A DNA stretch of 58,451 nucleotides, filler included, from Sphacelaria rigidula (GCA_964200075.2; 5 parts of 5 records of this genome joined end to end with filler, not necessarily neighbours in it); one strand, 5' to 3'. Counted from the whole stretch's first letter, positions 24,866 to 26,873 are shown. Translations and numbers: made by a program. The notes: generated by a model from the sequence alone, not told the origin.

Positions 24866-25401
24866 ATGTAGAGAGATGCAGCATCTAACCCTGCTGAAAG
24901 TACCGCGCCTAACACTGCGGTGGAACAGACTCCAGCAGCTACTTCACGCTCCATAGCGTCATTTTTTCAACCCTCTGCGCAGGAACGTGTGGCCCCTGCT
25001 GAGAGTGCCTCAACAACCGTGCATGACACCACATGCACCGGTGAGGCTTACACATCATAATCCCCAGCAGACAACCCGGTAGTACCCGCTGCAACTGCCT
25101 CCGCACGGGCTGCAGAGGCTCGCACAGCAAAATCTACTGCCGCTGAAACTCCTGCAGCACCCGCTGCGCCTGCCACCGCACGTGCTGCTGGAGTCCCTAC
25201 ACCCCCGCCCACAACGGAGAGGCCGGCCACACCTCCCGCCACCGAATCTACAAGCACGTCAACAGTTGAGAACCACGCAGCAGCACTCCACTGCGCTGAC
25301 GCATAATGTAGCAGGAAGGCCTTGTGGGCTGAGCCAGGAAAGGCGAACCCGGAGTTTTGCGGCATGCACGCGAACTCTGGTGACATCTACATTCAATCAA
25401 G
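24866..25401 (+). pseudogene. Putative transposase exon 1: Ala/Pro/Thr-rich region plus one EsV-1-7-like Cys/His repeat
   Basis: Single frame from ATG 24866 with stops at 24869, 25058 and 25304. Ends CADA*CSRKALWAEPGKANPEFCGMHANSGDIYIQS. Phase-2 donor AG|GTGTAC matches the phase of acceptor TTTTTCAG|G at 25940. Confidence 0.6.
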
Positions 25402-25940
25402 GTGTACGGAGTGTCTCTTCTCAGCAGCGTTTCGGTGTACTATATGTCTACCTGTGTGCATATGTGTTTTTGAATTCACTCGGCCTTGGCTGACCGAAAT
25501 CAATTTCATGTGTGATTTTCACATGCTGCTGTCCGGCTCGCATTTTCGCTCTTGTGAACGGTATCAAAGCGACACACTTGGTTACAAGACAAGACTACCA
25601 GTATATTAGCTTGTTCTGTAAGTAAGCGCGTTTTGTGATCTCTAGTTTTGTCCCACCGAAAAAAGTAAGAAAATGTTGCAACCACTTGCGCCAGTACCAC
25701 CTTCAGGCTTCGCCCCGCTTTGTGCCAGATAATCAGGAGGTGTCCTTAGCTCCCCTCATCAGTCTGCATACCTTATTTTCTGTTATTCGTTCTGTGAGCT
25801 TTTTGAGTCCTGTTTGATAATCAACAACTTTCAGCATCTCTTGTCTCGTGGTCGTTCAAGCTCGCACATCGTTACACACACTGCGCTGCATCGCGTGTGC
25901 CTTATTTTTGTCATTGCATCGAAATGCATCCCTTTTTCAG

Positions 25941-26873
25941 GAGACCACGGCTGCCTCAAGCTTTGACCACAGCAACCCGAGCGGCGCCCGTCGGCGACAC
26001 TATGTTCCCTGGAGAGTCTGAAGAGTGGACAGATGGTTTCGGTGGGTCTCTCGACGGCGTGCCGGCGGAGGGCAAAGGCAAGAGGAAAAAATAGCAGCTG
26101 GAGTTGGAGCCGCCGGACTTTCCGATTGAGTTGGTGGTGGCCAGAAGCGCAAGCGGCACGCGTTGGCTTTCAAAGTGAACGCGATTAAGTACGCGAACAA
26201 GAAAAGCCCAGGGGCGGTCGGGCCGGATGGAGCTATCGGCATATCGTATGCTACGAGGGTGTTGGGGATTCCTGGGAAGATCACACTTTCCGCCTGGGTA
26301 AAGGTCTGCGAAAAGTACGAGAAGGAGCTGGAACGGGCGGACAAGCTTAGGGCCCAAGGCAGGAAAAAAGCCCGGAGTGTTAAGTCGTTGAACACCGGCA
26401 GGATCAGGTCAAACACGGAAGCCGAGCTCGAACCGCTCGACTGGATCAACGATCTTCGCACCGATGAGATCTCTGCCCGTGTCTCGACGAGGATGATCAA
26501 GAACAAGGTCGTTTGAATCAACCCGCTTTTTTTCGACCCGAGGCCTGCAGCGAATGACCTGGAGGGCAGCAAGAAGTGTCGCGACAGGCAGACTCACTGG
26601 TGCAGGAGGTTTTTGAAGAAGTACCACCTGTCGTTGCCGGCGGTCACTCGACAAGGCCGGAAACTGCCTTCCGGGTGGCCTGCGATGGCCATGAAGGCGG
26701 TGAAAGATTGGAGGGCGCTTCGTCACGGAGGCATCGACGGGGGAGAGCGGCGTACGGAGGGGGCAGCGGACAGTAGGCCGTCGAAACCACCTCTGCTGTT
26801 CTCGGACGAACAGTGCTACAACATGGACGAAACCCCCGTGTGGATGGAGCCAGGTGCCAAGTCAACGGTGACG
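25941..26873 (+). pseudogene. Transposase exon 2: HTH and CENP-B-type HTH region with first catalytic Asp
   Basis: [49 protein letters not shown]. Stops at 26092 and 26514, frameshift near 26130. Donor ACG|GTAAGT at 26873/26874. Confidence 0.85.

Follow-up and report, generated by a model that had tools for sequence, protein, structure and literature searches.

The question raised by positions 24866-26873 of the Sphacelaria rigidula DNA analyzed here (a joined stretch of 58,451 nucleotides, hereafter called the window) is whether a short Cys/His-rich stretch lying inside a transposon belongs to the transposase encoded downstream of it. In brown algae, the EsV-1-7 proteins form one of the most strongly expanded gene families and one of the least understood; their member IMM controls early development, and a transposase carrying an EsV-1-7 module represents a tractable way to ask what this module binds. 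According to our analysis, the stretch probably represents the first (5′) exon of a transposase gene that belongs to a 4,459-bp cut-and-paste transposon of the pogo type (Tc1/mariner, DDE_1) and in which an EsV-1-7 module is fused to the transposase. This reading is based on an HMM match, the position and strand of the module, intact codons in other copies of the element, the composition of exons and introns, and a statement in the available part of a published account of the Ectocarpus family TcMar-2_Ec32.

Boundaries and Insertion Site of the Element

The element comprises 4,459 bp (24596-29054) with TA on both sides. The left TA target-site duplication (24594-24595) was read directly, and the right one (29055-29056) was assigned from the sequence together with contigs of other copies of the flanking repeat. 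Inverted-repeat pairing placed the terminal inverted repeats (TIRs) at 24596-24620 on the plus strand and at 29030-29054 on the minus strand, both being identified by the TIR 12-mer as well; including the TA, the inverted arms (24594-24620 and 29030-29056) are 27 nt long and 93% complementary. The 12-mer CCGTAGGTTGCA has exactly two matches in the window, at 24596 (plus strand) and 29054 (minus strand), compared to a chance expectation of 0.16, and at least two matches were obtained in 2 of 100 shuffles. Accordingly, the edges of the element read TA followed by CCGTAGGTTGCA at 24596, and TGCAACCTACGG ending at 29054 followed by TA. No second copy of the element was found within the window.

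Contigs from four runs of the same organism (X1, X2, X3, and X5) were used for comparison with other copies; since these contigs span introns and flanks, the four runs behave as DNA. Matches running from 29055 rightward were found in 55, 52, 48, and 26 contigs of X1, X2, X3, and X5, respectively, and the leftward consensus of these contigs ends in GTTGTCGTCCCATC, which resembles the left flank of the window, GTTGTAGTCCCGTC, located before the TA at 24594-24595. As the repeat contigs run from 29055 into sequence like that of the left flank, the element was inserted in a TA of the flanking repeat, with duplication of this TA. Independent confirmation of the element boundary comes from empty sites in paralogous copies of the flanking repeat, which read CCCATC and then TATTTTGG with the element absent.

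The flanking repeat itself deserves a short description. The right flank (29055-29385, minus strand) is a very high-copy repeat with a summed contig depth of about 1e5-1e6, as compared to a depth of 67 in X1 for the unique left flank. The 5′ part of the repeat on the minus strand (approximately 29385-29305) is tRNA-like and contains the boxes TGGCTCAGTTGG and GGTTCAAATCT, and the repeat is therefore probably a tRNA-derived SINE; ARAGORN and Rfam made no call on this tRNA-like sequence.

Inside the TIRs, a repeat search detected subterminal repeats at both ends: TATCACAC units and the palindrome CACAC(C/G)(C/G)GTGTG at 24655-24800, and units as at the left end at 28798-29040. Ten of the eleven TATCACAC sites and all four CACAC(C/G)(C/G)GTGTG palindromes of the window are located in the two element ends, and we regard the subterminal repeats as candidate transposase-binding sites. 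Moreover, contigs of the same organism contain the joints 24676>29017 and 24680>29020, in which the element ends are joined and about 4.34 kb are skipped. These end-to-end joints are short non-autonomous deletion derivatives sharing the ends of the element.

Transposase Gene and Catalytic Core

Alignment of six related proteins (P0001-P0006) and direct reading yielded a three-exon pogo/Tc1-mariner transposase gene on the plus strand. Exon 2 (25941-26873), delimited by tblastn of P0001-P0006, encodes a linker, the MFPGE block (ATG at 26002), and the DNA-binding region as far as the first catalytic aspartate (in NMDETP). It is followed by intron 2 (26874-27215; GTAAGT...TGCAG, 342 nt, GC content 0.465), the edges of which coincide with the positions where the homologue alignments break off (26870-26879) and restart (27207-27219). 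Exon 3 (27216-28163) encodes the DDE_1 core and an acidic tail and ends with the stop codon TGA at 28161-28163; its translation matches Pfam PF03184 (DDE_1) with an E value of 1.5e-14 and 54.4 bits, above the cut-off of 22. An acidic triad is present, consisting of the aspartates in NMDETP, WDDY, and PCDG, which we take to be the catalytic residues on the basis of pogo patterns. The aspartates of WDDY and PCDG are 34-35 residues apart, and D120/D121 and D156 of these two blocks are invariant in all seven aligned sequences. With its TA duplication and TIRs, its DDE_1 domain, and its acidic triad, the element is a member of the pogo/Tc1-mariner group.

The six related proteins, found with the DDE part, are 553-2000 aa long, show 46-66% identity, and all contain DDE_1. 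Five of them are from Ectocarpus sp. CCAP 1310/34, the best of these transposases being 66% identical, and one is from EukProt. The putative helix-turn-helix (HTH) region of exon 2 had no Pfam match in the copy of the window; among the relatives, HTH_Tnp_Tc5 was recognized in P0003 (E value 4.6e-4) and P0004 (E value 0.025), both under the cut-off.

Lesions in the Window Copy and State of Other Copies

The window holds a dead, pseudogenic copy, whose frame is interrupted by five stops and shifted by a 1-bp deletion. The proposed exon 1 contains TAG at 24869-24871, TAA at 25058-25060, and TAA at 25304-25306, and exon 2 contains TAG at 26092-26094, the 1-bp deletion after 26130, and TGA at 26514-26516; the two stops in exon 2 are additional to the lesions named in the original prediction. 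Since the protein cannot be made from a pseudogene, this copy could be moved only in trans, if at all.

Other copies in the genome differ from it at two of these lesions. Position 25305 is C in the other copies, which turns TAA into the serine codon TCA, in the single covering contig of X1, both covering contigs of X2, and the single covering contig of X3; contigs of X5 have a hole over 25135-25468. The other copies also differ at 25301 (Ala to Pro) and, synonymously, at 25309. As the stop within the EsV-1-7 motif is a serine codon in other copies, the genome also contains intact versions of the motif. The frameshift that had been predicted near 26130 proved to be the missing base of the window copy: three contigs in each of X1, X2, and X3 as well as one in X5 carry one extra T after 26130, with depths of 221.8 of 305 (X1), 91.8 of 123.6 (X2), and 49.5 of 62.3 (X3), and with this T the frame continues into the block common to the relatives. 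The comparison that the original prediction had proposed with other copies was thus obtained for the serine at 25305 and the T at 26130, within the 40 best-supported of 594 differences between the window and the other copies.

EsV-1-7 Motif in the Proposed First Exon

The proposed exon 1 (24866-25401, plus strand, GC content 0.584) was read as an ATG, an Ala/Pro/Thr-rich stretch, and the EsV-1-7 motif. This is the frame with three stops that had been noticed inside the TIRs, in which the Ala/Pro/Thr-rich stretch is followed by CADA, a stop codon, and CSRKALWAEPGKANPEFCGMHANSGDIYI, and it was reproduced from the ATG at 24866. The EsV-1-7 motif was reportedly defined by Macaisne and co-workers in 2017 as C-x4-C-x16-C-x2-H. 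This ligand spacing is present at 25292-25369, and the single motif of this type recognized with Pfam PF19114, with the TAA in its first loop, extends over 25292-25387 on the plus strand. With the stop translated as X, the motif aligned with positions 1-32 of the 35-position PF19114 profile (EsV_1_7_cys) at an E value of 1.1e-4 and a score of 22.4 bits. The expected EsV-1-7 match was thus obtained with the stop masked, at a score under the curated cut-off (22.4 versus 25 bits), and the score was 18.5 bits in the whole-frame translation. Since the X lowers the score, the motif as it stands uninterrupted in other copies may reach the cut-off of PF19114.

As a control, the element was translated in six frames (about 8,900 aa, with each stop read as X) and scanned; only two models fell below an E value of 0.1, namely PF19114 (E value 0.0019) and DDE_1 (E value 2.1e-13). 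A relaxed regular expression for the Cys/His spacing matched at seven sites when the whole window was read in six frames, and the bare spacing is therefore not significant alone; the site is singled out by the HMM match and its position, not by the spacing. The tandem arrangement known from IMM and EsV-1-7 was not found, the element holding one motif and one matched stretch. A search of the ESM Atlas with the 33-aa motif gave no usable match, and a search of the PDB by sequence gave no match for the motif and none for the transposase profile. As far as the accessible parts of two sources go, the EsV-1-7 domain is described as a possible zinc finger (PMC12477816; bioRxiv 10.1101/2024.02.19.579948).

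Proposed Joining of the First Exon to the Transposase

The proposed intron 1 (25402-25940, plus strand) is 539 nt long, starts with GTGTAC, and ends with TTTTTCAG. Joining TCA AG, which ends at 25401 before the GT at 25402, to the G at 25941, which follows TTTTTCAG ending at 25940, keeps the frame, in agreement with the phase join of the donor at 25402 to the acceptor at 25940 that had been put forward. As judged from the reading frame, exon 1 would be joined to exon 2 by the splice 25401^25941. Ahead of the MFPGE block, phase-compatible acceptors are located at 25940 and 25943 only. By contrast, eight phase-compatible GT donors lie at 25402-25561 in a frame that is open to 25609, and the exact donor at 25402 is therefore not fixed.

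The base composition follows the proposed structure, with GC contents of 0.584 for exon 1, 0.451 for the proposed intron 1, 0.60 and 0.58 for the parts of exon 2, 0.465 for intron 2, and 0.584 for exon 3. Moreover, frame-breaking indels between copies are located at 25651, 25653, and 25752, i.e., inside the proposed intron 1, and among the indels listed between copies none falls in exon 1, with 13 further indels lying beyond those listed. The 18 substitutions listed for exon 1 comprise 8 synonymous changes, 9 non-synonymous changes, and 1 change from stop to Ser, a pattern that gives no clear sign of purifying selection.

The N-terminal part of the related proteins was compared as well. Exon 1 showed 34-35% identity to the N-termini of P0002 and P0006 (E values of 3e-5 to 6e-5), and this similarity was rejected as firm homology because it vanishes with low-complexity masking and composition correction. 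PF19114 was found in none of the six DDE relatives. When 1.84 billion representatives were scanned in full with HMMER, 1,170 matches at E values up to 0.001 were obtained, and the pattern C-x4-C-x12-20-C-x2-H occurs in 0 of 156 related proteins, namely the six relatives and the best 150 of the 1,170 matches. This count is weak evidence, since the 150 include many fragments and annotation is often preceded by masking of transposon genes. No proteins of 197-2000 aa sharing words with the EsV exon were found, and metagenome, prokaryote-genome, and viral contig collections contained no related loci.

These comparisons bear on an alternative that we consider unlikely, namely that the EsV-1-7 stretch lies in the element but outside the transposase, either as a separate small reading frame upstream, as an exon of the 5′ UTR, or as a gene fragment captured from the host or a virus, with the transposase starting at the MFPGE methionine at 26002. 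Since the gene models of P0001 and P0004 begin at the MFPGE methionine, translation could start at this position, and the absence of the motif from the 156 relatives, the N-terminal homology that is not robust, and the low GC3 in most of exon 1 (0.43 in its Ala/Pro/Thr part compared to 0.73-0.74 in the transposase exons) point in the same direction. Contrarily, the frame upstream of the methionine at 26002 is open back to the acceptor at 25940, and P0003 and P0006 have coding sequence upstream of the MFPGE methionine. Furthermore, the stretch is on the same strand as the transposase and its join is in phase, and manual curation of a 4.4-kb element from the same superfamily, according to the available part of PMC12477816, assigns the EsV-1-7 domain to the transposase. 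It is hardly credible that the Cys/His pattern arose by chance in a non-coding 5′ region that has decayed: the score under the Pfam cut-off, the seven occurrences of the relaxed spacing, and the three stops in frame would fit it, whereas the HMM match covers 32 of 35 positions with nothing comparable in the other five frames, a sense codon replaces the stop in other copies, and a published family, as described in the accessible text, has a like architecture.

Comparison With Known Elements and EsV-1-7 Proteins

The fusion of an EsV-1-7 module to the transposase, as we read it here, had been thought undescribed, and this expectation did not hold. The architecture has already been described in 2025, one sentence in the available part of the article stating that the transposase of Ectocarpus TcMar-2_Ec32 has an N-terminal EsV-1-7 domain (Genome Biol 2025;26:320, PMC12477816). 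Literature searches on EsV-1-7 with transposase or transposon and on zinc fingers of brown-alga pogo elements retrieved the fusion only in this article. The available part of the same source reports 17 Mariner-Tc1 families in Ectocarpus, among them the 217-bp TcMar-N1_Ec32, which relies on the autonomous 4.4-kb TcMar-2_Ec32. The prediction of an extra Cys/His module on a pogo transposase is supported by the HMM match, the position, the other copies, the composition, and the published statement; its novelty was lost, and the notion that the element spreads EsV-1-7 repeats gained no support.

The likeness to TcMar-2_Ec32 is by description only, as far as the available text describes it: both belong to the Tc1/mariner superfamily, have a similar length (about 4.4 kb versus 4,459 bp here), and carry an N-terminal EsV-1-7 domain. 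Both also have short relatives sharing their ends, TcMar-N1_Ec32, in a MITE relation, in the accessible account and the joints 24676>29017 and 24680>29020 here, and the nearest named proteins to the element of the window are from Ectocarpus. They differ in that TcMar-2_Ec32 is given as autonomous in that account, whereas the copy analyzed here is a pseudogene. With pogo/Tigger elements (DDE_1, PF03184), the element shares the TA duplication, short TIRs, a D...D...D core with the last two aspartates 34-35 residues apart, and a putative HTH region before the core. In contrast to these, it has two spliceosomal introns, long subterminal arrays and, at the N-terminus, an additional Ala/Pro/Thr-rich region with the Cys/His module, and the HTH Pfam models stay under threshold. 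The EsV-1-7 proteins known from brown algae and phaeoviruses, such as IMM (PF19114), resemble the module in their Cys/His spacing and in the HMM match over 32 of 35 positions; however, the module is a single motif rather than a tandem array, it is located in a transposase and not in a stand-alone repeat protein, and its score is under the cut-off.

N-terminal zinc modules are known from other transposases, such as BED in hAT and THAP in P elements, and from the pogo-derived host gene POGZ. The likeness lies in the principle of equipping a DDE transposase with a small zinc module for an additional contact to DNA or chromatin, the folds or families being unrelated. In intact copies, the fused gene would encode a protein of about 805 aa with an Ala/Pro/Thr-rich N-terminus, one EsV-1-7 C2CH module, a putative HTH region, and a DDD catalytic core in this order. 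We propose that the HTH region would bind the TIRs and the subterminal repeats and that the N-terminal C2CH module, presumably binding one zinc ion, may add a nucleic-acid or protein contact, for which the TATCACAC and the palindromic CACACSSGTGTG subterminal repeats are candidates. Alternatively, the module might contact a host chromatin partner and thereby bias integration.

A far wider claim would be that several brown-algal genomes share an active pogo lineage in which the EsV-1-7 module works, under selection, as a zinc module targeting DNA or chromatin, and that transposon-borne copies were in addition a route of the motif between phaeoviruses and hosts or the seed of host EsV-1-7 genes; we consider this very unlikely. 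Because the architecture is in print and the copy is dead, the window adds only a further occurrence, exact boundaries, and candidate binding repeats.

The original prediction had further suggested that such an element could be a vehicle seeding or spreading EsV-1-7 repeats in brown-algal genomes, a notion to which we give almost no credence. Only indirect evidence speaks for it, namely the existence of short deletion derivatives of the element and the very large transposon orthogroup that, in the available part of the Phaeoexplorer study, was set aside in the collection of EsV-1-7 proteins (bioRxiv 10.1101/2024.02.19.579948). However, the accessible part of that study describes the expansion of the family in hosts as tandem repeats and tandem gene arrays, as compared to the single motif found here. 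Moreover, none of the annotated Ectocarpus EsV-1-7 genes covered by the available part of a further source contains another Pfam domain (bioRxiv 10.64898/2026.04.27.720984), and neither the 156 relatives nor the search among proteins of 197-2000 aa yielded a related protein carrying the motif. General context on EsV-1-7 is given in the accessible parts of PMC7457493 and PMC12993054.

Other Features of the Window

Outside the element, paired 44-N runs are located at 11612-11711, 23323-23422, 35033-35132, and 46743-46842, with a spacing of about 11,710 bases, and look like masking or assembly gaps. Two long open frames on the minus strand, 49003-51696 (897 aa) and 18802-20517 (571 aa), are rich in Ser/Ala/Gly/Pro low-complexity sequence and are probably host exons. 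The open reading frame at 49006-51696 (minus strand) is 99% and 74% identical to two proteins, with no Ectocarpus counterpart from NCBI in the protein search. Finally, a long G-rich, poly-Gly-coding simple repeat at 35763-36508 adjoins a 10-N gap.
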